Below, in pieces: positions 1,286-35,352 of a DNA stretch of 35,352 nt; position 1 is the first letter of the stretch, and each line of letters starts with the position of its first letter. The translations under genes and the position numbers were made by a program. The stretch comes from an uncultured Patescibacteria group bacterium (GTDB taxonomy: Bacteria; Patescibacteriota; Minisyncoccia; Phycocordibacterales; UBA918): the NCBI GenBank assembly GCA_934699595.1, contig CAKUWT010000001.1, forward strand, positions 419,033 to 454,384, read 5' to 3'. Below the pieces are notes generated by a model that ran no database searches, was not told the origin of the DNA, and was given only the letters and a program-made list of their open reading frames with translations.

Positions 1286-1294
1286 ATAAGATTC

Positions 1295-1897
1295 TTATTC
1301 ACTAATAATTTGACTATCACTTACTGATAATGATCGGCTGCTTTTGGTCTTCAAACTGTATACGTTGGCCGTGATTTCAAAGTCAATGCCCCCAGTATCA
1401 CTGGCTTCAATCATCAAATTAGCAATATCAAACTGATACTTATTTTTTTCTAGATTACGTAAATAATCTTTGATATTATCGTAAAAACCGTTGCCGCTCA
1501 CAATAAATTCGTGAGCTACTAGCTCCTCATCGTCCAAATTCTCAACATCATTATAGTTTATTACATCGTCAGCCTCTTCGTAAGTCAAACTTTCAATCAC
1601 CACTCCCGAGAGTTGGGCGATGTTCTTCAGGTCTTTCATGACACTAGCCGAATCCACCTCGTCAGGCAAATAGGTAATTAGATCTTGCTGCTTACTTGTA
1701 GGCACAGAATTAACTTGGGCCAACAGATTAGCTAGCTGGTCATTAACAGTCTTAACTTTCGTCAACTCTTGATTATACAAAGCAATATTATCTTGAGTGA
1801 CGCCAATTTCTTTAAGAGTAGGAACGATGTAGAGGAAAAAAATTGCTACAGAGATAGCCATCAGCGCAAATTTTGATATTACCGAAGAATCTTTCAT
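1295..1897 (-). CDS. pilO: PilO-like type IV pilus assembly protein
   Basis: 200 aa with an N-terminal TM helix followed by a coiled-coil-like segment (QDNIALYNQELTKVKTVNDQLANLL). It follows the pilM and pilN-like genes with a 3-nt spacing. Confidence 0.6.
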   Translation of the reverse strand: MKDSSVISKFALMAISVAIFFLYIVPTLKEIGVTQDNIALYNQELTKVKTVNDQLANLLAQVNSVPTSKQQDLITYLPDEVDSASVMKDLKNIAQLSGVVIESLTYEEADDVINYNDVENLDDEELVAHEFIVSGNGFYDNIKDYLRNLEKNKYQFDIANLMIEASDTGGIDFEITANVYSLKTKSSRSLSVSDSQIISE

Positions 1898-1900
1898 ACA

Positions 1901-2701: not shown

Positions 2702-2744
2702 GCACCCGTAAGAACTGAGGTGAAGATTCTACTTATCACCTATC

Positions 2745-8354: not shown

Positions 8355-8441
8355 GGAGACGTGGCTGAGTGGTCGAAAGCACCTCACTGCTAACGAGGCA
8401 GGGTCTAAAAGCCCTCGGAGGTTCGAATCCTCTCGTCTCCG
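8355..8441 (+). tRNA. tRNA-Ser (anticodon GCU), class II with long variable arm
   Basis: ggagacg tg gctgagtggtcgaaagc a cctca CTGCTAA cgagg cagggtctaaaagccctc ggagg ttcgaat cctct cgtctcc g. CCA is not encoded. Confidence 0.9.
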
Positions 8442-8506
8442 CTAAGTCTGTGACTAAATATAATTAAGTTACAAAATCTTAAAAACAAACCGCACTCTGT
8501 TTGGGC

Positions 8507-8531
8507 AAAAACAGTCTGGGAGACTGTTTTT
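8507..8531 (+). terminator. Intrinsic terminator after tRNA-Ser
   Basis: aaaaacagtct ggg agactgttttt. Perfect hairpin with flanking A and T runs. Confidence 0.7.
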
Positions 8532-8668
8532 GAGAATTAGTACCACCAGGGCATTTCTATTTTTATAGTCGGACTAGAGTCCTCCTTAAAAATAAGTCAA
8601 AAGGTTGCCAGCTATTTTGCGAAGCGATAGCGAGTAGAAATAGCGACAACCTGTACTGAACATGTAAT

Positions 8669-8690
8669 GTTCGAATCCTCTCGTCTCCGC
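8669..8690 (+). repeat. Exact 22-nt copy of the tRNA-Ser 3' end (T-loop to discriminator+1), here followed by CA so that it reads ...ctccGCCA
   Basis: gttcgaatcctctcgtctccgc is identical to 8421-8442. The 5' strand of the T stem is absent, so this is a fragment and not a gene. Confidence 0.8.
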
Positions 8691-14893: not shown

Positions 14894-14967
14894 CCGCATG
14901 TAGCTCAGTTGGTTAGAGCACGGAGCTTATACCTCCGTGGTCCTTGGTTCGAATCCAAGCATGCGGA
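14894..14967 (+). tRNA. tRNA-Ile with anticodon UAU (reads AUA)
   Basis: ccgcatg ta gctc agttggtta gagc a cggag CTTATAC ctccg tggtc cttgg ttcgaat ccaag catgcgg a. Fully canonical cloverleaf with U8, G18G19, TTC loop, U33, A37 and a C1-G72 pair. Confidence 0.85.
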
Positions 14968-14973
14968 CTAGTT

Positions 14974-17202: not shown

Positions 17203-17329
17203 AATACAGGCATTATACAGAAAAAGCCCAGTTTTTAAAGCTTTGAGAAACTATTTGCAGAAACCTGACCCCAAATCAGACCCTCATCTATTAGATGAAT
17301 CCTAATTTTTCTATTATAGTGTAGTGAAG

Positions 17330-17800
17330 ATGACCAAGAAAAGAACCCAACAGAAACTAGTTAAGGAGATTCTCAATCGTCAAGCACGCTTTAATTATGA
17401 GTTGTTGGAAAATTTTACCGCTGGAGTGGTCTTGTCTGGTGGTGAGGTCAAAGCTTTGCGCGCCGGCAAAGCTCATCTCAACAGCGCTTATGTCACCCTC
17501 ACCCCAACTGGCGCTCTTTTAAAGAACGCGTACATTGGCCCCTACCAGGAAGCCAATACTCCAAAAGACTATGAGCCAAACCACGACCGCGCGCTGTTGT
17601 TGGGTAAAAAAGAACTAGCCACCCTCCGTCGCGAACTCAATACCGCCGGCTTGACAATAGTGCCATTAAAGTGGTACAATGGTCGCAGAGTAAAACTCGA
17701 GATTGCCTTGGCCCGTGGAAAAAAGAAGGCTGACAAACGTCAAAGCCTCAAAACCCGGGACACCAAGCGTGATATCGAGCGCACTTTAAAAGCAAGTTAG
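17330..17800 (+). CDS. smpB: SsrA-binding protein SmpB
   Basis: NRQARFNYELLE..AG.VL.GGEVKALRAGK..L..AYV, with a basic C-terminal tail. The track start at 17324 is GTG, and an ATG follows at 17330. Confidence 0.9.
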   Translation: MTKKRTQQKLVKEILNRQARFNYELLENFTAGVVLSGGEVKALRAGKAHLNSAYVTLTPTGALLKNAYIGPYQEANTPKDYEPNHDRALLLGKKELATLRRELNTAGLTIVPLKWYNGRRVKLEIALARGKKKADKRQSLKTRDTKRDIERTLKAS

Positions 17801-18316: not shown

Positions 18317-18384
18317 CCCAGCCCCACTTTTTTCTTGGTGCATTTTAATATTCCAACACTTGTGGAGAAAAAAGTGGGGCTGGG
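18317..18384. repeat. Perfect 18-bp inverted repeat whose right arm overlaps the tmRNA 5' end
   Basis: cccagccccacttttttc (18317-18334) and gaaaaaagtggggctggg (18367-18384) are exact reverse complements, separated by a 32-nt AT-rich loop that contains TAATAT. Confidence 0.8.
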
Positions 18385-18790
18385 GATGCTAGGCCTTGAC
18401 GGTGTTTCGTCATCCCAGTGTGCAATGCGAGAGCTGCTCGAGACTCTCTATACCCCTCGAGCAATCTGTACATGCAAAGAATAGTGTACCTAGCCCATTT
18501 GCGCGAGCTTTTGGGTTCGCTCCAGCTTACGCGTAGATTTTTAATCCGCGAGCTTTCGAGCGACATGGTTAATCGGCTCGTTTAAGACCGATTAGTTCCA
18601 TGCTTATAGCCTCTTAAACTAGAGTCTAGACAGCCGTTTTCTGTCCTGACTCGATATTCTTAAAACTCGAAGTAATGATGTTTGGTTATTTTTCTAGTCA
18701 TTACTTTTAAATCCAAAAAGATAACTAGGCATTGTAGACTCCCTGGTGATACCAGCACTCGGACGCGGGTTCAATTCCCGCCATCTCCAC
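18382..18790 (+). ncRNA. ssrA: tmRNA (SsrA), standard one-piece form
   Basis: The 5' end GGGGATGCTAGGCCTTGACGG resembles E. coli GGGGCUGAUUCUGGAUUCGACGG. The 3' end cggacgcgggttcaattcccgccatctccac gives a T arm GCGGG/TTCAATT/CCCGC and an acceptor CATCTCC that pairs with GGGGATG, including the G3.U alanine identity pair. Candidate tag frame GCA 18474 to TAG 18534-18536 encodes AKNSVPSPFARAFGFAPAYA*. Confidence 0.85.
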
Positions 18791-19629: not shown

Positions 19630-20298
19630 ATGCTTCGTATGCTGACTACCTCGCCGACCGCGAGGGGCCTGACCGGAATTCGAATCCAGCATGACGAGGC
19701 GGCGCTGTTGCGTCACCCCGTCTGCACCACCATGAACATGGTCGTCTTGCTGGTCGCCACATTCATCTGGGTGGCAGTGGCCGATCAGTTTACTCGCGGC
19801 CAGCACGCCTACTTCGCAGCCCTGGTATGGCTGTACGGTTGTTCGACCGTTTACCACACCCTACCACGGACCCACTCCTGGGCTCGAGTGGCTAGGTTCC
19901 TGGACCAGACCGCCATCGGCTGGTTCATTCCGGCTACCGCCCTACCCTTTGTGTGGGGAGTGAGCAGCGAGGCGGTACTGGCACTCCTGATACTGATGGC
20001 GACACAGCCCATCTTCAAGTGGTTTGACGCCATGAGAAGGCTCGCCTCCCGTCGCCTGTTGTCGCTTACCTTTCTCATCAAAGGTATGGCGGCAGGTGGA
20101 CTGACCCTTCTCTACAACGAGATTGGTCTGGCGAGTGATCCGGTCTTCTGGATCGCCTCGAGCTGCTTCGTTCTCCAGCTAGCGATTTTTCATCGCAACT
20201 GGCTGAACTTGAGTCGAGCCTGGGCGAACGCCGAGAGCTATCACGCCATCCTCGCGATTGGCATTGTGGCTCTCACCGCTCTGGTGTTGAGGCTGTAA
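19630..20298 (+). CDS. Multi-pass membrane protein, weak hemolysin-III/PAQR-like features (GC-rich)
   Basis: AGGAGGTGGCG precedes the ATG. There are about 6-7 hydrophobic helices. The segments S..YH (STVYHTLP), D...I (FLDQTAIGWFIPAT) and a C-terminal His (AESYHAILAIG) sit where PAQR motifs lie, but the match is loose. Terminator gtggccgtttcc ttgg aaacggccac at about 20318-20345. Confidence 0.5.
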   Translation: MLRMLTTSPTARGLTGIRIQHDEAALLRHPVCTTMNMVVLLVATFIWVAVADQFTRGQHAYFAALVWLYGCSTVYHTLPRTHSWARVARFLDQTAIGWFIPATALPFVWGVSSEAVLALLILMATQPIFKWFDAMRRLASRRLLSLTFLIKGMAAGGLTLLYNEIGLASDPVFWIASSCFVLQLAIFHRNWLNLSRAWANAESYHAILAIGIVALTALVLRL

Positions 20299-20435
20299 TG
20301 GAGAACAGCGCAACTTAGTGGCCGTTTCCTTGGAAACGGCCACTTTTTTATTTACCGTCCGTCATAAAATAAAACCGGCCTCATTCAGCACCACGACGGT
20401 CAAACAACTATGTTATACTGCCCGATAAATTGACC

Positions 20436-20852
20436 ATGCAGCAACCAGCTCTAGAAAATTTCCTCCGCAAAAAAACTGCCTCCGGCTTAGGATTGTTTAC
20501 AAAAATACCGTTCACTAAAGGTGATTTTGTCCTGGAATACACTGGCGAAAAAATCAGTGACGCTGAGGCCGACCGTCGCGGTGGCCGCTACCTCTTCCGC
20601 CTCAATAAAGACTGGCTACTAGATGGTAAAGATCGTTCTCATCTGGGTCGCTATCTCAACCATAGTTGTAGACCAAACTGCTACGCTGAGATTGATGAAA
20701 ATGAAGAGCATATTTATTTCTACGCCAAGAAGAAAATCCGCGCTGGTGAAGAGCTTACTTTTAACTATGGCAAGGAGTACTGGCGAGAGTACATTGAGCC
20801 ATACGGCTGTAAATGTGCCACCTGTCTAGCCAATACTGGCCGTCCCAACTAA
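20436..20852 (+). CDS. SET-domain protein-lysine methyltransferase-like protein
   Basis: GLGLFT..., YLNHSCRPNC, ELTFNYG and a Cys-rich post-SET CKCATC. The track start at 20430 is TTG, and an ATG follows at 20436. Confidence 0.85.
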   Translation: MQQPALENFLRKKTASGLGLFTKIPFTKGDFVLEYTGEKISDAEADRRGGRYLFRLNKDWLLDGKDRSHLGRYLNHSCRPNCYAEIDENEEHIYFYAKKKIRAGEELTFNYGKEYWREYIEPYGCKCATCLANTGRPN

Positions 20853-20858
20853 ATCTGG

Positions 20859-20887
20859 TTGATTTTTAAGACTTTTGGTGGTAGAAT
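20859..20887 (+). promoter_or_regulatory. Sigma70-like promoter of the infC-rpmI-rplT operon
   Basis: TTGATT, 17 nt, TAGAAT, followed by a leader of about 130 nt. Confidence 0.5.
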
Positions 20888-21019
20888 TGACGGCACTATT
20901 GGAGATATTAGGGTCTTTATTTATATGTAGTTACTTAAGTTTAAATATTTTCCACTCGTAACTTTACGTTACTGCGACCCCCTTTTTTTCTTTTAATTAT
21001 CCAACTAAGACTTTATAAT

Positions 21020-21688
21020 TTGCGAAATAATAACCGACAAAAAACTTACCAAGACCGTACTCGCATCAACCAATCAATTCGTGCTCCTGAGCTACGAGTA
21101 GTAGGTGCTAAAGGCGAAAATCTAGGAGTCCTCTCTCGAGCCGAAGCGTTAGCTGAGGCAGAAAAGGCTAACTTAGATCTAATTGAAATCTCTCCCAAGG
21201 CCAAGCCACCCGTTGCCAAGATTATGGACTTTGGCAAGTACCGTTACAACACTGGTCGCAAGGCTCGTGAGGTGAAAGCCAAATCAAACGTTACCGAGAC
21301 CAAGAGTGTCCAAGTAAAAATCGGTACTGGCGAACATGATCAGCTACTTAAAGCCAAGCGGATTGCCGAATGGCTTGATGAGGGACACCGCGTTAAAGTC
21401 GACCTCTTTCTCTGGGGGCGATACAAATACATGGAGCCTGCTTTCCTTAAAGAACGTCTGGAGCGCTTTTTGAAGATCATCCCCTATGAGTACAAACTGG
21501 CTGATGAAATCAAGAAAAGTCCCAAAGGATTCACTGCGACATTGGAACGTCTTCCAGGTATCAAGCAGAAAAAACCCAAAACCACTACCGAAACCGCTCC
21601 CGGAAGCTCCCCTGCAGAGGAGAAAAATAACTTTGTCAAAAATAAACAAAAGTCTCTCGATGACTTATTGGCCGAAGGGATGATTTAA
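21020..21688 (+). CDS. infC: Translation initiation factor IF-3 (with a C-terminal extension of about 45 aa)
   Basis: INQSIRAPELRVVGAKGENLGVLSRAEALAEAEKANLDLIEISPKAKPPVAKIMDFGKYRY. A non-ATG start (TTG at 21020, exact start uncertain) is usual for infC. Confidence 0.85.
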   Translation: MRNNNRQKTYQDRTRINQSIRAPELRVVGAKGENLGVLSRAEALAEAEKANLDLIEISPKAKPPVAKIMDFGKYRYNTGRKAREVKAKSNVTETKSVQVKIGTGEHDQLLKAKRIAEWLDEGHRVKVDLFLWGRYKYMEPAFLKERLERFLKIIPYEYKLADEIKKSPKGFTATLERLPGIKQKKPKTTTETAPGSSPAEEKNNFVKNKQKSLDDLLAEGMI

Positions 21689-24130: not shown

Positions 24131-27100
24131 TTATTTACCCAACAGACCAAGGAAACCTTGCAAAACAGCAATAAGTTCTGTAACTAAAGTACGATTAGCC
24201 TCAGTCACAATCACCTGGGGACGATTAGTGGTAGAAAGATTCTTCTTGAATAAATCAGGGAACTTAGCTTCTAAGCGAGCCGCCTCGTCTTGATTACCCT
24301 GACTCCTTAATAGTGAGACCCGTGATAAAACTGAGAGACTTCCAATAACTCGTTTTTTGGCTGCAGGAGTTGTCTCTGGTTCAGAATCTGGATCAGGCTG
24401 AGAAGACTGCGGAGTCACACTGCTGGAAGGCAAGGAGCTTGGCGACGCACCGACATCATTGATAGCTATAACGGTAAACGTGTAAGTAGTACCATTACTT
24501 AATCCGGTGACCGTAAGGGGTGAACCGGATCCTGTGACAGTGCGACCCTCAGGATTACTGGTAACAATATAGCTAGTAATGGGACTGCCACCGTCGTCTA
24601 ACGGCGGGTTAAAACTAATGGTAGCATTACCATCCCCGGGAGTAGCGATGACATCACTGGGCGCACCAGGAAATACTGGAACTGGAGTTGTTACAGTAAT
24701 CATTAACGACTGCGTGGCCGTACCCCCCAGTCCAGTACAGGAAATTTCGTAAGTGGTGGTTGTGGTCGGACTGACTACCTGGCTACCGCTGGAGTCAGTG
24801 GAGCTAGTCCAAGACGCGGCACAAGAAGTAGCATTAGTACTACTCCAGTTAAGAGTGGTGTTATCTCCAACAATAATAGGATTACTACTAGCCGAAAGGT
24901 TAATAGCTGGAACTGGGTCAGGAGCCGCATTTACTACCACCGTGGCACTTTGAGTATCAGTGCCACCTAAACCTATACAAGTTAATGTATAAGTATAATT
25001 ACCAGAAGTAAGCACTCCAGTACTCTGACTACCACTAACAGATTGGGACCCACTCCAAGATCCACTTGCTGTACACTCGGTAGCATTTACAGTACTCCAA
25101 TTAAGGGTGGTGGCACTACCACTCTCTATGACACTATCTTCAGTCGAAATGCTAATAGTGGGAGCTAGGTAACCAACACTAACCGTAGTGGTAGCTATAG
25201 CTGTCCCACCAGGGCCAGTACAGGAAATTCCGTAGGTAGTGGTGGCGGTAGGGCTCACTGCTTGACTACCGCTCGAGTTAGTGGAACTAGTCCACCCCTC
25301 ATCAGCAGCACAGACTGTAGCATTGGTACTACTCCAAGAAAGAGTAGCCGATTCTCCTAAGTTAATATCTGTCGGACTAGCGTTGAAACTGACGGTTGGA
25401 GTCGGATGGTTTACCGTTACAGTTACTGACTTACTAACTGGCCCGTAATCTCCAGTACAATTTAAAGTATAGGTAGAAGTAGTAATCGGTGCCAGACCTT
25501 CGTTACCACTAGTTTCTTTTGCGCCAGCCCAGTCTCCAGACGCGACACATCCATCTACCAGGTCCGCACTCCAAGTGAGAGTCACCGTGTCTCCGGCAGT
25601 AATTTCGGGAGAGGAGGAGATAAAATCAAGAGTTGGTGTCGGTACAGAAGCGTCAAAAAATTTGACACGGTTACCAGTCTCCTCGACTACCAATAAGTAA
25701 TTATTATCAGGATCGTAAGTCAAACCAGTAGGAGTATTTAATTTATCCTGAGCATCACCAGCCGTATTAGACACCCAGTCACTCTGACCGAGGACATAGC
25801 TGGCATTCATACCGTTCGTGATAGTACCTGAAAGGTCGAATGCCTTGACGCGGTGACTAAATTTTTCTGAGACGAATAGGCGTCTGTGTTCGGAGTCATA
25901 AGCCAGGCCGTTCGGACTGCTCAACTTGTCCTGAGCATGACCGGCTGCTGACCCTGACCAGTCCACTTGACCTAGGACATAGCTAGCGGGCATACCGTTC
26001 GTGATTCCACCTGAGAGATCGAAGACCTTAACACGGTTGCCACCCGCTTCAGCAACAAAAAGATAGTCGACAGCTGAATCAAAAACCAAACCTCGTGGAT
26101 TAAACAGTTCACTTTGAGTATTACCACTAGCTGATCCAGTCCAGTCTGACTGCCCCAGCACATAGCTCGCATTCATACCATTCGTGATACCGCTGGAGAG
26201 ATCGAAGACTTTGACGCGGTTGCCGCTATTCTCAGCCACAAATAACAACTCACTATTAGCATCAAACTCTAGACCCATTGGATACTTAAGCTTATCCTGA
26301 CTATCTCCAGAAGTTCCTGATGTCCAATCAACCTGCCCGAGCACATAGCTCGCATTCATACCGTTAGTAATGCCGCTGGAGAGGTCAAAGACTTTGACGC
26401 GATTGCCACTGGTTTCAGAAACAAAAAGATACTTATTGGCCGCATCGAAAGCCAATGCCTCCGGATAATATAAACCTGATTGGGTACTAGTAGCTAAGGC
26501 GCTATTAAAGTCAGGTTGTCCTAGAACATAATCTGGAAGGTAGTCTATCAATTTATTATTACTGTCTAGCTGATGAATAATAACCCGATGACTGCTTCTA
26601 TCAGTAATAAAGAGTCTGTGATTATCTAAGTCATAAGTAACTCCTGTAGGGCTTGAAAAACCTCTCATATTGGGTCCGTTGTAGGAACGATAGGAGCTGC
26701 CACTTTCACCTTTTGAATAGTCAATGATCAGGTTGTCAATATCAGAAAACTGCCCCATCAAATCAGATGCGGGCATATTGTTAATAATTCCTTCTGAGAG
26801 ATCGAAGATTTTGACACGGTGGGCGCCCTCAGCAACGAACAAGGTTGAAGAAACAGGGTCGAAAGCTACATCGGTTGGGCCATTTAGTCCGTTTTGTGTA
26901 TTACCGACAGCCAAACTTGTCCAATCTGTTTGTCCCAAAACGTAACTGGCATTCATACCGTTGGTGATGCCGCTGGAGAGGTCGAAGACTTTGACGCGGT
27001 TACCCGAACTCTCAGCAACAAATAGTCGGTTGTTATTATCTAGAGTTAATCCTGTTGGTTGATTTAGTTTGTCCTGAGCATTACCAGCGGCAAACCCCGT

Positions 27101-28036
27101 CCAGTCAGACTGTCCCAGCACATAGCTGGCATTCATACCGTTCGTGATAGTACCTGAAAGGTCGAAGATTTTGATGCGGTTAGACTCAGCCACAAATAAC
27201 CTTGAAGTGGCAGGATCAAATACCAAACCTCTGGGTTGAGTAAATCGATTTTGAGCATTAGCATTAGTACTACCCGTCCAGTCTGACTGTCCCAGCACAT
27301 AGCTCGCATTCATACCGTTCGTGATAGTACCTGAAAGATCGAAGATTTTGACACGGTGGGCGCCCTCACTGACAAACAGTCGTGAAGTGGCTTCGTCATA
27401 GGCGAGACTGTTTGGATTAGATAATTTATTTTGAGCATCACCAGCTGTATTAGACACCCAGTCACTCTGGCCTAACACGTAACTGGCATTCATACCGTTC
27501 GTGATTCCTCCTGAGAGATCAAAGACTTTGACTCGGTTAGCATTAACCCCCTCAACAACATAGAGGTATTTTTTTGCCTGATCATATTCGATATCAAGAG
27601 GAGATCTCAATCCAGACTGCGTATCGTTTGCAGCTATGGTAAAGAAGTCTGTCTGTCCAAGGACATAGTCTGCCTTATAATCCAGAAGTTGATTATTGTT
27701 GTCTAATTCGTGTATAAGAATGCGGTTGCTGTTAGTATCACAAATATATAAATAATGATTAATTGAGTCTAGATATGTGCAACCAATAGCCCAATAAGTA
27801 CTTTCATTTGCGCCTCCATTAAAACTTCTGCCAGTATACGAAGGAGTAGTATATCCCCCGTTTTCATACTGTCCAATCAGATCAATGGCTGGAGCACCAT
27901 TGCTAATTTCTGCTTCGGCTTGATTAAAGTTAATCCCAGAATAAATAACTGATAAAATTAATAATAGCAAACCAACTATCCCAAAAATGATTCGCTTTGG
28001 TGACCGGACTTTTCGAGTGACAAGGACAAGACTCAT
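24131..28036 (-). CDS. Giant secreted/surface protein: signal-anchor, two six-bladed NHL-like beta-propellers, four Ig-like repeats, one fibronectin type III domain, Pro/Asp/Ser linker and a helical C-terminal domain of about 75 aa
   Basis: 1301 aa. The N terminus is KVRSPKRIIFGIVGLLLLILSVIYSGI...AEA. There are 12 repeats of about 59-61 aa of the type NRVKVFDLSGGITNGMNASYVLGQSDW...L..P.GL.-D....LFVAE, and 4 repeats of about 80 aa of the type T.G...TL.WSS.NAT.C.AS..WS.S...SGSQ...P...TTY.L.C.G.GG. The Fn3 domain reads PGAPSDVIATPGDGNATISFNPPLDDGGSPITSYIV...GLSNGTTYTFTVIAINDVG. Confidence 0.9.
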   Translation of the reverse strand: MSLVLVTRKVRSPKRIIFGIVGLLLLILSVIYSGINFNQAEAEISNGAPAIDLIGQYENGGYTTPSYTGRSFNGGANESTYWAIGCTYLDSINHYLYICDTNSNRILIHELDNNNQLLDYKADYVLGQTDFFTIAANDTQSGLRSPLDIEYDQAKKYLYVVEGVNANRVKVFDLSGGITNGMNASYVLGQSDWVSNTAGDAQNKLSNPNSLAYDEATSRLFVSEGAHRVKIFDLSGTITNGMNASYVLGQSDWTGSTNANAQNRFTQPRGLVFDPATSRLFVAESNRIKIFDLSGTITNGMNASYVLGQSDWTGFAAGNAQDKLNQPTGLTLDNNNRLFVAESSGNRVKVFDLSSGITNGMNASYVLGQTDWTSLAVGNTQNGLNGPTDVAFDPVSSTLFVAEGAHRVKIFDLSEGIINNMPASDLMGQFSDIDNLIIDYSKGESGSSYRSYNGPNMRGFSSPTGVTYDLDNHRLFITDRSSHRVIIHQLDSNNKLIDYLPDYVLGQPDFNSALATSTQSGLYYPEALAFDAANKYLFVSETSGNRVKVFDLSSGITNGMNASYVLGQVDWTSGTSGDSQDKLKYPMGLEFDANSELLFVAENSGNRVKVFDLSSGITNGMNASYVLGQSDWTGSASGNTQSELFNPRGLVFDSAVDYLFVAEAGGNRVKVFDLSGGITNGMPASYVLGQVDWSGSAAGHAQDKLSSPNGLAYDSEHRRLFVSEKFSHRVKAFDLSGTITNGMNASYVLGQSDWVSNTAGDAQDKLNTPTGLTYDPDNNYLLVVEETGNRVKFFDASVPTPTLDFISSSPEITAGDTVTLTWSADLVDGCVASGDWAGAKETSGNEGLAPITTSTYTLNCTGDYGPVSKSVTVTVNHPTPTVSFNASPTDINLGESATLSWSSTNATVCAADEGWTSSTNSSGSQAVSPTATTTYGISCTGPGGTAIATTTVSVGYLAPTISISTEDSVIESGSATTLNWSTVNATECTASGSWSGSQSVSGSQSTGVLTSGNYTYTLTCIGLGGTDTQSATVVVNAAPDPVPAINLSASSNPIIVGDNTTLNWSSTNATSCAASWTSSTDSSGSQVVSPTTTTTYEISCTGLGGTATQSLMITVTTPVPVFPGAPSDVIATPGDGNATISFNPPLDDGGSPITSYIVTSNPEGRTVTGSGSPLTVTGLSNGTTYTFTVIAINDVGASPSSLPSSSVTPQSSQPDPDSEPETTPAAKKRVIGSLSVLSRVSLLRSQGNQDEAARLEAKFPDLFKKNLSTTNRPQVIVTEANRTLVTELIAVLQGFLGLLGK
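24676..25645 (-). repeat. Four tandem Ig-like coding repeats of about 240 nt
   Basis: Recurring ...TL[ST]WS[SA]...C.A......SGS[QE]...TTY.[LI].C.G.GG...TV.V units seen in the translation. Confidence 0.7.
25650..27800 (-). repeat. Twelve tandem NHL-like coding repeats, period about 177-183 nt, with near-identical 40-70 nt DNA cores
   Basis: The core gcattcataccgttcgtgatagtacctgaaaggtcgaa recurs at 25803, 27129 and (with 1 mismatch) 27308. Related cores occur at about 25985, 26168, 26351, 26947 and 27487. Confidence 0.85.
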
Positions 28037-28165: not shown

Positions 28166-28771
28166 CTAGTCCGGAGTACCATCAAGGTTGATGTCGTACA
28201 TAATCCGCTCTTGAGCTGTCACGTACTCGTTGAGCTCTTCGGGTTTAAACCATAGTGCCATCTCCCGATCAGCTTCTTCAACGGATTCTGAACAATGGAT
28301 TAAGTTGCGGACAGCGCGATTCTCGTAGGAAGAATGAGCATAAGAATCAAGGGTAAAATCTCCTCGAATAGTACCAACGTCTGAGGTGGTAGGCTCAGTT
28401 GTGCCGACTAATTTAGTTACCACAGCGACAGCTTGATTCCCTTCCCAAACCATTGCCACCACTGGTGCCACTGTCATATAGTTCACAATAGTACGAATAA
28501 TATCTTTTCCATATTCAATTGGCTCACGATCAATGGGGCGGCCTTGGGACTTCAAATCCTCAACAATCCTAGTCCCCTTACTAAGGAACCATTCATCATC
28601 TTTATTATAGTGTTTGAGTAATGTCTCCTGATCAGGAACCACCATCTTCATACCAACACACTTTAGACCAACACGTTCAAATCGACTAATCACTTCTCCA
28701 ATGAGAGATCGTTGGACAGTGTCGGGCTTCAGCAACACAAGGGTCTGTTCTTGGTTTGGATGTTTAATCAT
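28166..28771 (-). CDS. ndk: Nucleoside diphosphate kinase (with an internal insertion of about 35-40 aa and a C-terminal extension)
   Basis: TLVLLKPDTVQRSLIGEVISRFERVGLK, GTIRGDF, and the catalytic His in NLIHCSES. ATG 28771 (MIKHPNQEQ) is preferred over the upstream alternative start at 28924, which would overlap a terminator hairpin. Confidence 0.85.
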   Translation of the reverse strand: MIKHPNQEQTLVLLKPDTVQRSLIGEVISRFERVGLKCVGMKMVVPDQETLLKHYNKDDEWFLSKGTRIVEDLKSQGRPIDREPIEYGKDIIRTIVNYMTVAPVVAMVWEGNQAVAVVTKLVGTTEPTTSDVGTIRGDFTLDSYAHSSYENRAVRNLIHCSESVEEADREMALWFKPEELNEYVTAQERIMYDINLDGTPD

Positions 28772-28834
28772 AAAATAATGTCTATTTATTAACTTAATAA
28801 TCTGAGTTGCTGGCAGTATAGCCCAGTTTGTCTT

Positions 28835-28878
28835 AAAAAAAAAGCCCGCAAGCCACCTCACCATGAGGGACTGCGGGC
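28835..28878 (-). terminator. Intrinsic terminator in the map-ndk spacer
   Basis: On the minus strand: GCCCGCA GTCCCTCATGGTGAGGTGGCT TGCGGGC followed by TTTTTTTTT. Confidence 0.6.
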
Positions 28879-28952
28879 AGTTGCGGTCGAGGGACAGTGG
28901 TACGTCCAGCTGGTGACCAACCAACCAGACGCGTATATACTACCAAAAAATC

Positions 28953-29723
28953 TTACTTTGTCAATATTTTTGCACCGTCTGGAGTAATTGCTACCGTGTG
29001 TTCAAAGTGCGCCGAGATAGAGCCATCTTCAGTATAAACAGAGTAGCCGTCACCCTCATCATCAAACCATACTTCTTTTCCTCCCAAGTTAACAATTGGC
29101 TCAATGGCGTAGACATGCCCCACTTCAATCTTTGGCCCCGTCCCTGGTCGACCGAAATTTGGTACCAGTGGCTCCTCGTGAACCCTGTAACCGACCCCAT
29201 GACCGCTTAGCACCTCCACCACTGACAGCCCTCGACTTTTTACAAAAGTCTCGATAGCATGGCCAATGTCACCAATGTGATTGCCTGGCTTAGCCGCTTT
29301 AATCCCAAGAGCGAGCGCCTCCTGCGTCACGGCTAGTAATTTTTTGGCATCGTCACTAATTTCTCCTACCCCCACCGTGATGCCGGAATCAACAATTAGC
29401 CCCTGGTAATCGATCGCGGAATCAAGGTTAACCACGTCTCCTTCTTGAAGAATCAAATCAGCGCTAGGAATACCGTGCTGCACACAATTATTTACCGAAA
29501 TACAAACCGCGGCCGGATACGGATATGGGGCAAAATCAGGATGATATCCAAGCAAAACTGGTTTTACCTCAGCCGCCTCCATTAGCTCCATAGCCATATC
29601 GTCAAGATCAAGAGTAGATACTCCAGGTTTAGCTGCGACTCCAAGTTGTTCGAGGATATTCGCCAGAATCTTACCTGCCTCAGCCAACACTTCGATGTCG
29701 GCCGTCGTTTTTTTGGTGATCAT
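28953..29723 (-). CDS. map: Type I methionine aminopeptidase
   Basis: 256 aa with metal ligands in context: VNLDSAIDYQGLIVDSG, HGVGYRVHE, IEPIV and FEHTVAIT. Confidence 0.95.
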   Translation of the reverse strand: MITKKTTADIEVLAEAGKILANILEQLGVAAKPGVSTLDLDDMAMELMEAAEVKPVLLGYHPDFAPYPYPAAVCISVNNCVQHGIPSADLILQEGDVVNLDSAIDYQGLIVDSGITVGVGEISDDAKKLLAVTQEALALGIKAAKPGNHIGDIGHAIETFVKSRGLSVVEVLSGHGVGYRVHEEPLVPNFGRPGTGPKIEVGHVYAIEPIVNLGGKEVWFDDEGDGYSVYTEDGSISAHFEHTVAITPDGAKILTK

Positions 29724-29724
29724 T

Positions 29725-30321
29725 TTATAGGTTTAAAGCTCTAATAATAATATGCTGTACCTCATTAACATTCAGAGACCCATCAATATCAATCACCCGC
29801 GTGGCTGGCCGAGTTCGATAAAAATCTAGAACAGGCAGAGTTTGCTCCCGGTACCAAGCGAGACGCTTCTCAATACCCGCAGCAGTATCATCCGCCCGGC
29901 CACGACCAGCCATCCGTTTCAAAATAATCTTTTCTGGTGTATCTAAGTTTATCACCACCAACTCCCTTCTCCGATAGAACTGCCATACCCCCTCCATTAA
30001 TTCCGCCTCGGCTAAATGTCGTGGGGAACCTTCAATTAGGAAATGCTTCTTGTCGTCTCCCTGTTTTCGCAATAATTCTGTCCAGAGGCTGGCGGCCAGA
30101 AACAAGGGCTGCAACTCTCCATTGACAATATCCTCCTGTACTTTTTTGGTACTATAGGTCTTTTCACCAGCAAAAAATTCCCGAAATAAATTACCAGTTT
30201 GAATTTCTAAAATGCCTGCCGAGTTCTCAGTAGCTTCCAAAACTGATCGTAAGAGGCCTATTTGGGTCCCTTTGCCACTGCCTTGGGGTCCGATAAAAAT
30301 AACCGTTAATGGGTTTGTCAT
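29725..30321 (-). CDS. adk: Adenylate kinase (short-lid type)
   Basis: P-loop IGPQGSGKGTQ and lid/arginine segment MAGRGRADDTAAGIEKRLAWY. 198 aa. Confidence 0.85.
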   Translation of the reverse strand: MTNPLTVIFIGPQGSGKGTQIGLLRSVLEATENSAGILEIQTGNLFREFFAGEKTYSTKKVQEDIVNGELQPLFLAASLWTELLRKQGDDKKHFLIEGSPRHLAEAELMEGVWQFYRRRELVVINLDTPEKIILKRMAGRGRADDTAAGIEKRLAWYREQTLPVLDFYRTRPATRVIDIDGSLNVNEVQHIIIRALNL

Positions 30322-30333
30322 AATGCGAATTGA

Positions 30334-30909
30334 TTAATTGTTAGTACTTAAATGAGAATTAATTTCGGCTTGTACCATCTCGGGGGTGAGCGATCCATCA
30401 ATATTCACCAACTTACCGGTACTGGCAAAAATATTAATCGACTCTGCTGTAAATTGATGATACTCGGCTAAGCGCTTTTCAATAATCTCTGGAACATCCA
30501 CCTGATCTCGAGCACGCGCCTGACTCCGTACACGCACTAAATCATCACTGATATCAAGGTTAAAAATGATGTATGGTCGCTGTAGCCACTCATGAATTTC
30601 GATAAACAATTTAGCCTCATCAGGTTTCTTAGCAACGGCCTCAAAAATAATCCGTTCCTGACTGTATTTATTGACCAAAGCGTCGGTCATCCAGTACGAA
30701 GCAATCCACTCCGGGATTAGCAAACCCCCTTCGTAGCAAGTCTTAACATTCTGACCAAATGGAGTAGGCTCTTTTATGGCGGAGCGAACATTATCACCAT
30801 TAGAATACATCACTCCCCCGTAATCCTTAATAATCCTTTCTGCTTGAGTACCTTTACCGGAGGCAATTTTGCCCATCAGGACAATACTTTGGTAGGGAGT
30901 TTTTGACAT
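30334..30909 (-). CDS. Adenylate kinase-like NMP kinase paralog
   Basis: P-loop MGKIASGKGTQAERI, LIPEWIA and RARDQVDVPEIIEKRLAEY. It is divergent from the neighbouring adk, and its substrate cannot be assigned from sequence. Confidence 0.65.
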   Translation of the reverse strand: MSKTPYQSIVLMGKIASGKGTQAERIIKDYGGVMYSNGDNVRSAIKEPTPFGQNVKTCYEGGLLIPEWIASYWMTDALVNKYSQERIIFEAVAKKPDEAKLFIEIHEWLQRPYIIFNLDISDDLVRVRSQARARDQVDVPEIIEKRLAEYHQFTAESINIFASTGKLVNIDGSLTPEMVQAEINSHLSTNN

Positions 30910-30955
30910 GACTACTAGAGATTATCAAGTTTCTTACAGCTTAGCAACTTTGGAA

Positions 30956-30997
30956 GTTAAACAAAAGCGGTCTCGTACGAGACCGCTTTTGTTTAAC
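30956..30997. terminator. Strong bidirectional terminator between secY and the kinase genes
   Basis: gttaaacaaaagcggtctc gtac gagaccgcttttgtttaac. 19-bp perfect palindrome. Confidence 0.75.
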
Positions 30998-31019
30998 TCC
31001 GCCACTCTCCTGAGAAAGC

Positions 31020-32291
31020 TTAGAATTGTCTCATCGAAATCTGAGCGTCCAGACGACGGAGGATGTCCATAATTACCTGCACTACAATCAAGACGGCCGT
31101 TCCTCCAATAGCGAGAGCGGCAATGCCGGTAGCGGCCTGAAGACCGACCGGTAAGACCGCAATCGTGGCCAAGAAGAAGGCGCCAACCAGAGTGAGACGC
31201 GTCACTAGATTACCCAGGTACTCAGCCGTATGTGTTCCCGGACGAATGCCTGGGATATACGAACCACTACGCTGTAAGTTCTTGGAAATAATATCTGGGT
31301 CAAAAGTCACTCCGGTGTAGAAGTAAGTAAAGGCAAAGACTAAGAGGAAGTAAACACCGCCGTATAACCAATAATTATTGATGAAGGAGTCAACCGCCAC
31401 AGCCGCACTCGCTGCCCAAGACAAATCAAAGGCGGACAGGACATTTAGAATCATCTGCGGTGACAACATGATCGACAACGCGAAGATGATCGGAATCACC
31501 CCGGCTTGATTCAGCCGTAGTGGCAAGTAAGACTGGCTAGAACCATAAGTTTGCATACCACGGCTTTGTTTAGCCTGGGTAATAGGTACTGGTCGCTCTG
31601 CCTCATCCATCACTACTACCGAGTACACAATCGCCAATGCCAGAGCAGTAAAGCCTAGGTAGAAAGGCAGTTGCGATGGATCGTAAGCAAAGAGGAGCTG
31701 TGAAGCGGTAGTAGGCAGAGTAGCCACAATACCAGCAAAGATAATGATGGATACGCCGTTACCGATACCGTACTCAGTCACCAGTTCCCCGATCCACATC
31801 AAAAGAAATGAACCACCCGTGACCAACACCACATTCGTGGCAAACTCAAACGGTGACAAACCAGAGATTACTCCTTGGCTTTGTAACAGGGTCAAAAAAC
31901 CAAAAGCCTGTAAAACTGCCAACGGCAAGGTGAGGTAGCGGCTGTATTGTGTGAATTTTGCTCGACCGGCCTCTCCCTCTTCACTCTGCAAACTTTTCAC
32001 CTTAGGTGACATTACAGTAGCCAACTGCATAATAATAGCCGCCGTAATGTACGGCCCCACACCAAGCATCACCAGTGAAAGGTTGGCGAGTCCGCCACCA
32101 GAGAACATATTTAAGAGTCCTAGGAATTCATTGTTGCTAAAGAATTGCGCTAAGACCGCTTGATCAACCCCAGGAATCGGAATAGAAGCCAAGAATCGGA
32201 AAGCCACCAGCGCTCCCAACACAAAGAGCACCCGGTTACGAATCTCTGGTTCAGTGAAGACGACTTTTAATTTACGGAAGAATAATTGCAT
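31020..32291 (-). CDS. secY: Preprotein translocase subunit SecY
   Basis: 423 aa, 10-TM pattern, and a conserved N terminus ...RNRVLFVLGALVAFRFLASIPIPGV. Confidence 0.95.
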   Translation of the reverse strand: MQLFFRKLKVVFTEPEIRNRVLFVLGALVAFRFLASIPIPGVDQAVLAQFFSNNEFLGLLNMFSGGGLANLSLVMLGVGPYITAAIIMQLATVMSPKVKSLQSEEGEAGRAKFTQYSRYLTLPLAVLQAFGFLTLLQSQGVISGLSPFEFATNVVLVTGGSFLLMWIGELVTEYGIGNGVSIIIFAGIVATLPTTASQLLFAYDPSQLPFYLGFTALALAIVYSVVVMDEAERPVPITQAKQSRGMQTYGSSQSYLPLRLNQAGVIPIIFALSIMLSPQMILNVLSAFDLSWAASAAVAVDSFINNYWLYGGVYFLLVFAFTYFYTGVTFDPDIISKNLQRSGSYIPGIRPGTHTAEYLGNLVTRLTLVGAFFLATIAVLPVGLQAATGIAALAIGGTAVLIVVQVIMDILRRLDAQISMRQF

Positions 32292-32310
32292 ATTGGATGA
32301 TTAGTGATAT

Positions 32311-32763
32311 TTATAATACCACTTTACCACCAGCCTCCTCAATTTTGGCTTTGGCAGTAGCGGAAACGGTGCAGTTCTGAACAGTAATCTTTTTAGTCAA
32401 TTCACCCTGACCCAGAATCTTTACCAACGGGTTTTTCTTACCTTTAGCTTTGATGATGCCAGCAGCCACAATGGAAGCTGGGGAAACAGTTGCGCCAGCG
32501 GCAAAGTGCCTCTCAAGCATATTAAGATTGACCGGAACAGCAAGCTTACGCTCAGCATTCACCACATCAGCCCGATTGACACCATGCCCGCGTAGTTTAG
32601 GCAACTTCTTGATGATGTCGCGCATCTCTGGACGAGTGCTATTACCAGCACGGGCCAGTTGGCCTTTGTGTCCACGACCTGAAGTCTTTCCTCGCTTACC
32701 GCCTCGACCAATCCGCTTAGCGGTTTGTCGAGATGAGTGAGCGGCTAATTCATGTAATTGCAT
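32311..32763 (-). CDS. rplO: 50S ribosomal protein L15
   Basis: MQLHEL....R..AKRIGRGGKRGKTSGRGHKGQ.AR.G. Confidence 0.9.
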   Translation of the reverse strand: MQLHELAAHSSRQTAKRIGRGGKRGKTSGRGHKGQLARAGNSTRPEMRDIIKKLPKLRGHGVNRADVVNAERKLAVPVNLNMLERHFAAGATVSPASIVAAGIIKAKGKKNPLVKILGQGELTKKITVQNCTVSATAKAKIEEAGGKVVL

Positions 32764-32768
32764 AATAA

Positions 32769-33404
32769 TTATTTAGTGTCAGACACGCCTTTGAGGGCGT
32801 CTTGACTCTTAAGCTGCTTAAGCGCTTCGACTGTAGCGCGAGCATTATTTAATTTATTCTTGCTTCGTGAAAAGATTTTGGCCGTCACATCCTTGACACC
32901 CGCTAATTCCAAAACAGTACGCACTGAAGAACCAGCGACTAATCCACGACCAGCGGCTGGAATAATCATCACCTCGCTAGACGTGAACTTGGCATGCACA
33001 TCATGTGGTAAGTGACTGTCTTTATTCATCGAGACAGTAATCATATTCTTCTTGGCGTTGCGCACAGCTTTTTCAATAGCTAGCTGTGTATCGCCCGCTT
33101 TACCTAGGCCAACACCCACTCGCCCCTTCTTGTCACCGATCACCATCGCGACCGAGAAACTAAAGCGGCGTCCACCCGCCATCACGCGAGTTACGCGACG
33201 GATACTGATAATTTTTTGATCAAATTCTGGACGAACCCGACCACGCTCCCGTCCCCGACGAGGACGCCGCGGTCGACGGTTATTGTCGCCAGCTGGTTGT
33301 CGACGTCGTGGTTCAGCAGGTGCATCGGTTGCAACAGCTTCTGTAGCCCCTGCAGTTTCTGGGATTACCCCAGTTGTAGCTTCCGGCTGATTTGTTTCAG
33401 ACAT
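32769..33404 (-). CDS. rpsE: 30S ribosomal protein S5 (with an Arg/Pro-rich N-terminal extension of about 60 aa)
   Basis: ...IISIRRVTRVMAGGRRFSFSVAMVIGDKKGRVGVGLGKA...AIEKA. It ends only 5 nt before rplO, so no L30 gene lies between them. Confidence 0.9.
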   Translation of the reverse strand: MSETNQPEATTGVIPETAGATEAVATDAPAEPRRRQPAGDNNRRPRRPRRGRERGRVRPEFDQKIISIRRVTRVMAGGRRFSFSVAMVIGDKKGRVGVGLGKAGDTQLAIEKAVRNAKKNMITVSMNKDSHLPHDVHAKFTSSEVMIIPAAGRGLVAGSSVRTVLELAGVKDVTAKIFSRSKNKLNNARATVEALKQLKSQDALKGVSDTK

Positions 33405-33455
33405 AAACTTAACTTAAAATTTTAATAACTAATCTTCTTGATAATAAACAACCAT

Positions 33456-33809
33456 CTAGAAGACCAAACCTCCTTCACGGGCAGCGTCAGCCAAGATAGC
33501 GATGACGCCATGGTACTTAAAACCGCCGCGGTCAAAGACCACTGTGTCAACTTTCTTTGCCTTAGCTAATTCTGCTACCTTACTTCCAAGCGTTTTCGCA
33601 GCCTCAGTCATAGTACCCTTAATACCGCGTGAATCAGCGGCCGCCAAGGTGACACCCGCCTCATCATCAATTAGCTGCACATATAGGTAGTGATTGCTCT
33701 TAAAAACCGATAGTCGCGGTCGGGTCGCGGTACCAGAAATGCGTGCACGAATACGGTCTTGACGACTGCGGCGCTGTACAACTTTGTTTTGCTTTTTTTT
33801 CATATTCAT
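33456..33809 (-). CDS. rplR: 50S ribosomal protein L18
   Basis: ...[31 protein letters not shown]...[27 protein letters not shown]. Confidence 0.9.
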
Positions 33810-33821
33810 TTCCAGGAGAGA

Positions 33822-34352
33822 CTAAACAGCCTTCTTACCTTGCTTACGAATAATAAACTCGTCACGATAACGAATTCCCTTACCTTTGTAAGGCTCTGGC
33901 GGGCGTACCTTGCGAATATTGGCAGCAAACTGACCCAAGGAATCCTTATCAGGTCCAGTGATAGTGATAGATGATTTTTCCACCACTGCAGTCAAGTTTT
34001 CCGGAATGGTTAGCACGACTGGGTGAGAGTAGCCCACGTTTAACACAACCTCATTACCCCGTACCTCAGCTCGGTAACCCACCCCTTCAATATCGAGGAT
34101 TTTGGTAAAACCATCGGTAACACCTTTGATCATATTGTGCAGATGAGCAGCGTAAGTACCCCACAACGCCTTAGCGTTATCAGTTTCTTGCGGTACTAAT
34201 TTTACCTCACCGTTCTCGATCATTACGGCCACATCATCTTTAATCATTCGTGAAAGGGTACCTTTCGGTCCTTTCACCTTCAGCTCCTGATCCACAAAAG
34301 TAATTTCTACTCCAGCAGGGACAGTAACTGGTAGTTTTCCTAATCGACTCAT
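33822..34352 (-). CDS. rplF: 50S ribosomal protein L6
   Basis: MSRLGKLPVTVPAGVEI...VKGPKG.L. The ATG at 34352 is preferred over the TTG at 34361. Confidence 0.9.
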   Translation of the reverse strand: MSRLGKLPVTVPAGVEITFVDQELKVKGPKGTLSRMIKDDVAVMIENGEVKLVPQETDNAKALWGTYAAHLHNMIKGVTDGFTKILDIEGVGYRAEVRGNEVVLNVGYSHPVVLTIPENLTAVVEKSSITITGPDKDSLGQFAANIRKVRPPEPYKGKGIRYRDEFIIRKQGKKAV

Positions 34353-34354
34353 AC

Positions 34355-34750
34355 TTACCAAATTATGAAAAGTTGCTCTCCACCAACATTTTGCTGACGA
34401 GCTTCCTCGTTGGTCAAAATTCCGGCTGGTGTCGACAAGATCATATGACCGTGTCCAAACTTTACTCGATTAATGTCCGTTACCTTAGTATACAAGCGTC
34501 GACCAGGCTTGGAGACTCGCTTCACACCGTTGATACAGTGCTGGTCTGCCTCATACTTAAGAGTAACTTCTAGTGTCTTGGTAGCTGGAGTTTTTCCTTT
34601 TACCTCAACGCTTTGCAGGTAACCCGCTGCCACCAACTTGTCGGCAATGGCATGGCGAAGACGAGAGTAAGGCACACTGACCACCTCGTGTCCAACCGCT
34701 CCGGCATTCTTCAGGCGAATAATAAAATCGCCGATCTTATCGCTTACCAT
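34355..34750 (-). CDS. rpsH: 30S ribosomal protein S8
   Basis: [16 protein letters not shown]...G.I.IW, with an ATGGTAA overlap with the rpsN stop. Confidence 0.9.
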
Positions 34751-34929
34751 GATGATTTCTTAACGCCTGGTATATGACCTTCGTGCACCGCTTCACGGAA
34801 ACAGATACGACAAAGATCAAAGTCTTGTAAATAGCCATGCTTACGCCCACACTGGTTACAGCGACGGACGACACGGCTTTTGAATTTTGGTGGGCGACTA
34901 GCGCGCACCTTAAGTGATGTTCTTGCCAC
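34744..34929 (-). CDS. rpsN: 30S ribosomal protein S14, short zinc-ribbon (type Z) form
   Basis: 61 aa with a GTG start and [23 protein letters not shown] (CxxC...CxxC). Confidence 0.9.
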
Positions 34930-35058
34930 TAATTATTTTGGTTATGAGGCCGTATCATGTAGAAATTCATGACGTGCCCCTTTAATAAATCGCCCCCATT
35001 GCTGGTTGGCGGCTGGTTGAGATTGACAAACTTATCAGAACCCAACGGAAGCTCCGCT

Positions 35059-35086
35059 AGTATAGCTTTTTTAGCAGGAAAATCAA
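35059..35086 (-). promoter_or_regulatory. Candidate sigma70-like promoter for the rpsN-led ribosomal operon
   Basis: The minus strand reads TTGATT, 16 nt, TATACT, about 125 nt upstream of the rpsN GTG. Confidence 0.4.
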
Positions 35087-35277
35087 GCGAATGAAACCTA
35101 AATAAGTATGCCTATATGAGTAGTCTTTCGACTACTCGGAACACCCCTCTCACATAAGCTGTGCCCATGTGAGAGGAGAGGGAGGCTGTTCACCTCATCA
35201 CCACCACCCCCTCGCAAGCTTTACTTGCAAAAGATGGTGGTCAGTATCAGTAAAAACTACTTAGGGCGATCTTTAAC

Positions 35278-35352
35278 CTACTTAACCCCCAACAACCCCA
35301 AGAACACCTGGAGTACAGTGATTAACTCTTGCACCAAGGTCTTGTTCTCTTC
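35278..35352 (-). CDS. 3' end (last 24 codons plus stop) of an unidentified gene that carries the same C-terminal motif as the giant surface protein
   Basis: Hand translation of the minus strand from 35352 gives EENKTLVQELITVLQVFLGLLGVK*, with TAG at 35280-35278. It is absent from the ORF track because it has no start in the window. Confidence 0.6.
   Translation of the reverse strand, partial: EENKTLVQELITVLQVFLGLLGVK

Follow-up and report, generated by a model that had tools for sequence, protein, structure and literature searches.

Why should two genes lying within 11 kb of each other in one genome, and coding for large proteins with unrelated heads, end in almost the same peptide? We asked this question of a 35,352-nt stretch of DNA from an uncultured Patescibacteria group bacterium (NCBI GenBank assembly GCA_934699595.1, contig CAKUWT010000001.1, positions 419,033 to 454,384 of the forward strand; hereafter the window). 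The first gene encodes a giant modular surface protein of 1301 residues; the second, cut off by the end of the window, is referred to here as the edge gene. A preliminary description of the window had proposed that their common ending is a lineage-specific sorting tag for surface proteins. Our analysis indicates that the peptide belongs to a longer tail. A C-terminal domain particular to this lineage, seated on a stalk cassette that the carriers share, describes this tail better than a new short sorting tag does, and it may serve to hold its carriers at the cell envelope.

The giant protein (24131-28036, minus strand) ends in EANRTLVTELIAVLQGFLGLLGK (over a longer stretch, QVIVTEANRTLVTELIAVLQGFLGLLGK), while the visible part of the edge gene (35278-35352, minus strand) translates to EENKTLVQELITVLQVFLGLLGVK, each followed directly by a stop codon. 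Aligned without gaps, 17 of 22 residues are identical, and a one-residue gap brings the terminal Lys of both tails into register to give 18. This identity is not due to chance, since the best of 1,000,000 composition-preserving shuffles reached 12 of 22; in a window-wide control the best chance-level matches had 9 identities, the C termini of the adenylate kinases (Adk) being one of the top two. The same codon is used at only two of the 17 identical residues (Phe TTC and Leu TTG) and the terminal Lys codons differ (AAA/AAG), while nucleotide identity across the two tail ends is 38/66. Because the codons differ at most of the identical residues, the similarity is old and selected and not a DNA repeat; on this codon evidence the tail is real and under purifying selection. 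Much of the preliminary description therefore stands: the near-identical endings, the different codons at 16 of 18 identical residues (our recount gave the same figure), the case for selection over a recent duplication or assembly repeat, and the location at the extreme C terminus, which translation bears out in exported proteins. It had also placed the peptide after a Pro/Asp/Ser/Thr linker. This linker exists, but some 70 residues further upstream, and the stretch from it to the peptide is taken up by a conserved helical hairpin and another short linker.

Additional sequence for the edge gene indicated how far the similarity extends. An ENA assembly of the same locus (ERZ27286916, L001) adds 64 bases, or 21 codons, bringing the known part of the product to 45 residues, PDLFKKTVSAPSTPTTQITVTEENKTLVQELITVLQVFLGLLGVK. 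The extended product carries PDLFKK...QITVTE upstream of the shared peptide and, because PDLFKK and Q-I/V-x-VTE are also found in the giant protein, similarity begins well upstream of that peptide. A third tail emerged when the last 85 residues of the giant protein were used in an exhaustive phmmer search of 1.84 billion cluster representatives: P0121, a 1235-residue protein of a related organism (ENA ERZ28614527), was matched at E 6e-18 with 61% identity over 80 residues, again at the extreme C terminus. Over its last 67 nt, the P0121 gene is 88% identical to the edge gene; on this ground P0121 was taken to be the related organism's ortholog of that gene and used as a full-length proxy for it.

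In these sequences the tail is a module of about 77 residues (roughly 80), of which the peptide first noticed is the last third. Block 1, a helix-turn-helix with the consensus SVLSRVxxLRSxGNxxExARLEAKFPDLFKK, is separated by a variable linker, TVTAPATPTT in P0121, from block 2, with the consensus VTExN[KR]TLVxELIxVLQxFLGLL plus 1-3 residues ending in Lys or Arg. The motif V-T-E-x-N-x-T is invariant directly before the terminal helix, and tail homology starts about 55 residues ahead of it. In all three sequences the tail forms the extreme C terminus and the helix stops 1-3 residues short of the stop codon. The last residues read GK in the giant protein, GVK in the edge gene and RGR in P0121, so that all endings are basic, with a single Lys in each window gene against two Arg in P0121. 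When the giant protein was compared with P0121, the two top 22-residue windows were RSxGNxxExARLEAKFPDLFKK (18/22) and VTExNxTLVxELIxVLQxFLGLL (17/22), both the best conserved within about 500 shared residues. The proposal of a self-contained short sorting tag carried by otherwise unrelated proteins is not supported by this comparison, in which the tag proves to be the second of two blocks conserved to the same degree.

At the N terminus of both full-length carriers, a run of basic residues leads into a segment of about 17-21 residues that is strongly hydrophobic (the core in the giant protein has 17), as assigned by eye and hydropathy and, for P0121, after extension of the open reading frame (ORF) to an upstream Met; with such N termini, both proteins are probably exported. 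In the giant protein this segment is the most hydrophobic 19-residue window, with a Kyte-Doolittle (KD) value of 2.56, and the signal is presumably cleaved. Beyond it, Pfam identified NHL repeats, an SGL/lactonase-type propeller and fn3 in the giant protein, while P0121 consists of beta-helix, PKD and LamG domains, five Ig-like repeats and the tail. The N-terminal halves, NHL propellers in one and beta-helix/PKD/LamG in the other, are thus unrelated, whereas about 500 C-terminal residues comprising four or five Ig-like repeats and the tail are common to both by BLASTP and global alignment. The Ig-like repeats, which carry a conserved Cys pair (TLSWSSxNATSC ... Y.L.C.G), are 32-45% identical between the two proteins.

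It was foreseen in the preliminary description that full-length paralogy of the two genes would reduce the motif to an ordinary remnant of duplication, and the carriers are indeed partial paralogs over these 500 residues. The tail might then have no targeting meaning and be no more than the best-kept part of a C-terminal half that was duplicated, such as an element for folding or stability; the tiny size of the family and the lack of function-linked neighbors around its genes agree with such an origin. However, the heads are unrelated, and the tail, at about 62% identity, is roughly twice as conserved as the adjacent repeats, at 32%, even though synonymous sites are saturated and the giant gene and the P0121 gene yield no nucleotide-level match. 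The tail has also kept its exact C-terminal position in both lineages, with last 1-3 residues that vary yet stay basic. Finally, because the stalk-plus-tail cassette is joined to unrelated heads, it appears to be a functional unit. We consider it unlikely that paralogy by itself accounts for the tail.

To describe the tail itself, we used AlphaFold2 (AF2) in two runs on shallow, three-sequence alignments, together with hydropathy analysis. The models placed the helices of block 1 at residues 1233-1245, 1249-1258 and 1260-1263 (predicted local distance difference test, pLDDT, 84-92) and a terminal helix at residues 1282-1300 (pLDDT about 82-87), preceded by a disordered stretch. A confident compact fold of the tail was not obtained by AF2 (predicted template modeling score, pTM, 0.35-0.41) and, since the helices lack confident tertiary packing, the models cannot tell a bundle from an extended arrangement. 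Among the 19-residue windows of the giant protein, the terminal helix ranks second in hydrophobicity, with a KD value over 19 residues (KD19) of 1.41, a summed Hessa energy of +6.3 kcal/mol and a hydrophobic moment (muH) of 0.25-0.39, and its uncharged stretch measures 17-18 residues from flank to flank, with a Glu and a Gln inside. For comparison, the C-terminal transmembrane (TM) anchors of homologs have KD values of about 2.0-2.1 and Hessa sums from -0.7 to +2.4. Judged as a single-pass stop-transfer anchor, the helix is borderline by KD and Hessa, and only 1-3 residues follow it. Leu, Ile, Val and Phe make up its broad face, and Thr, Glu, Ala, Gln and three Gly its narrow one (T, T/E, A, Q/G, G, G/K). 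The Glu, Gln and Gly positions are invariant or nearly so in the three sequences, which suggests a specific helix-helix contact and not mere greasiness. A search of PDB sequences returned a similarity to the TM2 entry of AcrB/MdtF at a non-significant E of 0.055, and homology to these proteins was rejected. Foldseek searches with the tail model gave nothing below E 2; TPR proteins were among the non-significant top matches.

These features could also be read without a membrane. The hairpin and the terminal helix may form a soluble docking or oligomerization domain, a bundle within or between chains that multimerizes the stalks or plugs into an S-layer, a pilus or another partner. The tail has two conserved helical blocks and not one, its terminal helix shows the 4-3-4-3 hydrophobic spacing and the second, adjacent hydrophobic stripe that are typical of bundle cores, and its polar and Gly positions are invariant; block 1, moreover, draws TPR-type hairpin matches by both sequence and fold, none of them significant alone. 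Yet AF2 gave no confident compact bundle for the monomer, with the low pTM values stated above, the blocks are joined by a linker that is variable and predicted to be disordered, and no partner was identified. We regard a purely soluble docking bundle as somewhat unlikely.

We then considered how widely the module occurs. The 85-residue tail had no match at E <= 1 in Pfam or NCBIfam, collections that include models of the LPXTG, PEP-CTERM, PGF-CTERM and GlyGly-CTERM types, and the full-length carriers matched only NHL, fn3 and NosD-like models. The earlier statement that the peptide fits no known class was therefore accurate for these libraries, by which the tail is a feature without a described family. 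In the exhaustive phmmer search, which is insensitive to carriers with only the last 20-odd residues in common because such matches fall below significance, P0121 was the sole convincing relative. Six other matches to TPR or other repeat proteins owed their scores to many summed weak matches to parts of the hairpin and were not accepted as homologs. As a separate observation, the 90% cluster that holds the 1301-residue protein has an unrelated 42-residue fragment as its representative. Word-indexed protein searches with the 93-residue tail and with the three-sequence alignment returned no relatives but are weak, as they also missed P0121 and the giant protein, both present in the collection. 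In peptide-pattern scans (PDLFKK... and Q[IV][TI]VTE...) of GTDB representatives, JGI metagenomes and IMG/VR, no locus could be confirmed. With a degenerate DNA pattern for ELIxVLQxFLGLL, eight matches each were obtained from GTDB and from the JGI metagenomes, mostly at one Capnocytophaga locus; they were out of frame or non-terminal and were set aside as chance. Because the known carriers were not returned either, the GTDB and JGI scans show rarity in other lineages and not absence from the source genomes. No further carriers were seen in about 68 kb of the two organisms, including 9 kb more of the window's own contig, and the tail is absent from all 120 best NHL homologs, which are of CPR/Patescibacteria type (CPR, Candidate Phyla Radiation). 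The preliminary description had taken a lack of further carriers as a reason to abandon the tag, and this lack is largely what we found, with only the edge-gene ortholog P0121 emerging from the 1.84 billion representatives. What can safely be said is that the module is restricted to a narrow lineage, with only two gene families known as carriers, in two related metagenomic organisms. Since the tail is known from only these two families, nothing yet points to a new sorting system.

The NHL homologs offered an indirect view of what might be expected at this position. The head is the sole part of the giant protein with many homologs, 1087 in number, covering about 58% of the query and all in CPR/Patescibacteria bacteria. 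We compared the C-terminal ends of the 120 best of these and found that PG_binding_1-type ends occurred in about 25 and a TM segment with a basic tail in 6, while others had SLH or SH3 (SH3_3) domains or aromatic ends. Evidently, CPR NHL-repeat proteins swap C-terminal attachment cassettes, among them PG-binding, SLH, SH3, TM and the tail studied here. Because the homologs often hold known envelope-attachment cassettes where the giant protein has its tail, a C-terminal anchor is the expected role.

The aromatic ends are a pattern of their own. In 24 of the 120 homologs the protein ends in F[HY]F[FY]G[FWY] directly before the stop, after a Gly/Asp-rich stretch; these are mostly proteins of about 1900 residues from Peribacteria-like genomes (P0001-P0020, P0027, P0031, P0035, P0073 and P0120). 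About 10 more homologs end in other short aromatic motifs (..PGYE, ..FFFGP, ..MMFP). Such ends could be the closing strand of the last propeller, or a C-terminal tag far more widespread than the tail considered here.

Could the tail nevertheless be a true lineage-specific sorting signal, in which VTExN[KR]T, the hydrophobic helix and the basic end are cleaved by a sortase-, exosortase- or rhombosortase-like enzyme before attachment to the envelope? As criteria we used the attributes of tripartite C-terminal sorting signals given by Haft (bioRxiv 10.1101/2023.06.07.544157). The tail shares with such signals its C-terminal location, the N-terminal signal peptides of its carriers, and homologs that bear alternative C-terminal anchors (attribute 8); there are at least two carriers within 11 kb, V-T-E-N-T is invariant before the helix, and P0121 ends in RGR. 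In place of a strongly hydrophobic TM segment, however, it has 17-18 residues with Glu and Gln inside and the KD19 and Hessa values given above, and in place of a cluster of 2-5 basic residues it has just one or two at the end. Its carriers are not pairs without other similarity but share about 500 residues. With regard to attribute 3, the motif before the helix is invariant, yet the homologous region begins about 55 residues ahead of it, at a hairpin conserved just as well. No sorting model of NCBIfam or Pfam matched, a single other carrier cluster was found among the 1.84 billion representatives, and no candidate processing enzyme of the sortase, exosortase, rhombosortase or CPBP type is encoded in the 35-kb window or in 24 kb around P0121. 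We consider a cleaved sorting signal very unlikely. A related and similarly improbable idea is that the tail is the recognition element of an undescribed, lineage-restricted surface-display system, in which a dedicated membrane protein would bind VTExN[KR]T and the helix, perhaps cleave them, and fix interchangeable heads to the envelope, with more carriers elsewhere.

Together, the exact C-terminal position, the stronger conservation of the tail than of the stalk, the two unrelated heads and the cassettes of the homologs lead us to favor envelope retention. We propose, as a reading that is possible but short of probable, that the tail is a module specific to this lineage which is not cleaved off and which, on a stalk common to its carriers, serves for envelope retention or docking. 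In it, a flexible linker would join a helical hairpin to an amphipathic terminal helix with Lys or Arg at its end, and these parts together would form the base of a stalk cassette (Ig-like repeats, then tail) on two or more surface proteins that are exported by Sec and differ in their heads. After export by the N-terminal signal, the tail would not be removed and would retain the protein at the cell envelope. We infer from the sequence that the terminal helix may lie in the outer leaflet of the cytoplasmic membrane, or marginally span this membrane, as in the case of E. coli PBP5; alternatively or additionally, it may pack against a conserved partner.

Several points weigh against retention at the envelope by this tail. 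The terminal helix is more hydrophobic than classical in-plane anchors and too polar for a standard single span, so that neither membrane mode is a clean fit, the Hessa sum of +6.3 comparing with at most +2.4 in the anchors of homologs. The conserved hairpin block has no explained role in it. The conservation itself rests on a single ancient paralog pair and one close ortholog, and the argument from position is one of guilt by association.

How ultra-small, host-dependent CPR bacteria keep giant adhesin-like proteins on their surface is poorly understood. If the tail is an anchor, it would add one more cassette to those of the NHL-repeat proteins and would provide a compact handle of about 77 residues for localization experiments or surface-protein tagging in this lineage. 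The payoff is limited by the very narrow distribution, two gene families in two related organisms, and no sign of a dedicated sorting machinery was seen. The layout of the two window genes is given in Table 1.

Table 1. Features of the giant surface protein gene and of the edge gene, in window coordinates.
Feature	Position	Strand	Evidence
Gene for giant modular surface protein, 1301 aa	24131-28036	-	ORF list, translation; stop codon 24131-24133
N-terminal export signal or signal anchor, residues 1-43	27908-28036	-	translation: basic n-region, hydrophobic IIFGIVGLLLLILSVIY, then ...NQAEA/E
Head: NHL-repeat beta-propeller region, about residues 45-795	25652-27904	-	Pfam
Stalk: four Ig-like repeats of about 80 aa each, residues ~798-1117	24686-25645	-	BLASTP against P0121, global alignment
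fn3 domain, residues 1125-1205	24422-24664	-	Pfam PF00041, E 2.7e-13
Acidic Pro/Asp/Ser/Glu/Thr linker SSVTPQSSQPDPDSEPETTP, predicted disordered	24365-24421	-	translation; pLDDT <50
Tail block 1, helix-turn-helix SVLSRVSLLRSQGNQDEAARLEAKFPDLFKK, residues 1235-1265	24242-24334	-	alignments, AF2
Within-tail Ser/Thr/Pro linker NLSTTNRP, predicted disordered	24218-24241	-	alignment; pLDDT <50
Tail block 2: QVIVTEANR, terminal amphipathic helix TLVTELIAVLQGFLGLLG and Lys; contains the peptide first noticed (24134-24202)	24134-24217	-	translation, AF2
Edge gene, 3' end EENKTLVQELITVLQVFLGLLGVK and stop codon 35278-35280	35278-35352	-	cut by window and contig end

The two tail-carrying genes bracket a block of ribosomal genes. 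This cluster (28166-35352, minus strand) reads S14(Zn)-S8-L6-L18-S5-L15-SecY-Adk-Adk-Map-Ndk and has no L30 between S5 and L15; an S5-L15 junction without L30 is a known CPR trait and, together with the taxonomy of the NHL homologs, points to a CPR-like organism. The edge gene lies directly upstream of S14 (34744-34929), in the usual place of L5, and the giant gene directly follows ndk. Between secY and map there are tandem adenylate kinase paralogs (29725-30321 and 30334-30909, minus strand; 198 and 191 aa). Perfect hairpins at 35118-35137 and 35146-35176, with stems of 8 and 10 bp, lie between the edge-gene stop and S14; they have no T-run and were not called as intrinsic terminators, and may represent a terminator or a leader structure of the ribosomal genes. 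Promoter and terminator scans around both carrier gene ends gave nothing informative. Three independent assemblies (the source contig, ENA k141_368053 and Logan ERR7738460_175316) terminate 27-138 nt upstream of the edge-gene stop, which suggests that a repeat or strain-variable region directly upstream of this gene end breaks short-read assembly.

Elsewhere in the window, at 8419-8690 beside tRNA-Ser(GCU), we observed an extra copy of the tRNA 3' end (GGTTCGAATCCTCTCGTCTCCGC) together with a conserved non-coding block, 75-89% identical to the region just upstream of the P0121 gene (L012, 9271-9473). By alignment, the region on the P0121 side apparently holds three copies of the tRNA 3'-end sequence, and one intact tRNA was called in the region of each organism; L012 also encodes a large serine recombinase (20165-21448). 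The copies may be tRNA-associated integration scars or an unrecognized RNA. A tRNA-Ile with the anticodon UAU, which is uncommon in bacteria, is located at 14894-14968 (plus strand), and a tmRNA (18382-18790, plus strand; tag peptide AKNSVPSPFARAFGFAPAYA) adjoins smpB (17324-17800, plus strand). A type IV pilus cluster at 944-3824, continuing beyond the window (L021, 10613-20603), encodes PilM, two ORFs downstream of it (one of which weakly matches PilO), two ATPases of the T2SSE family (PilB/PilT-like), a PilC-like protein of the T2SSF family, a response regulator, a prepilin peptidase and pilins. Such clusters are typical of CPR episymbionts, and this one is, as far as seen, unrelated to the tail.

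Among known systems, TPR-like helical hairpins resemble block 1, as the exhaustive search aligned LLRSQGNQDEAARLEAKF with TPR repeats from fungi and bacteria; the tail, however, has a single hairpin, the scores were inflated by summed repeats of the targets, and no Pfam TPR model matched. With LPXTG/sortase, PEP-CTERM/exosortase, PGF-CTERM/archaeosortase, GlyGly-CTERM/rhombosortase and MYXO-CTERM/myxosortase signals the tail has in common the C-terminal site, the signal peptide of its carriers, a short invariant motif before a helix and a basic last residue. It differs from them in its weak segment bearing Glu and Gln, the lack of an Arg cluster, the homology of its carriers and conservation reaching about 55 residues upstream, as well as in having no match among hidden Markov models and no many-to-one set of carriers. 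The PG_binding_1, SLH, SH3_3 and TM-plus-basic-tail cassettes occupy the same site after a propeller and an Ig-like stalk, but are unrelated to the tail in sequence and predicted structure.

The comparison most relevant to envelope retention is with E. coli PBP5, in which a C-terminal amphipathic helix of 18 residues anchors a Sec-exported enzyme, uncleaved, to the outer face of the cytoplasmic membrane (PMC2909392). Compared with PBP5-type anchors, to which it has no sequence similarity, the terminal helix is more hydrophobic, follows a conserved hairpin and is carried by giant modular proteins of a presumably monoderm bacterium, and its membrane binding is a prediction. What the tail shares with PBP5/DacA, PBP6 and PBP4 is the combination of an N-terminal export signal with an amphipathic helix in the last 18-20 residues or so, 19 in the tail as predicted by AF2.

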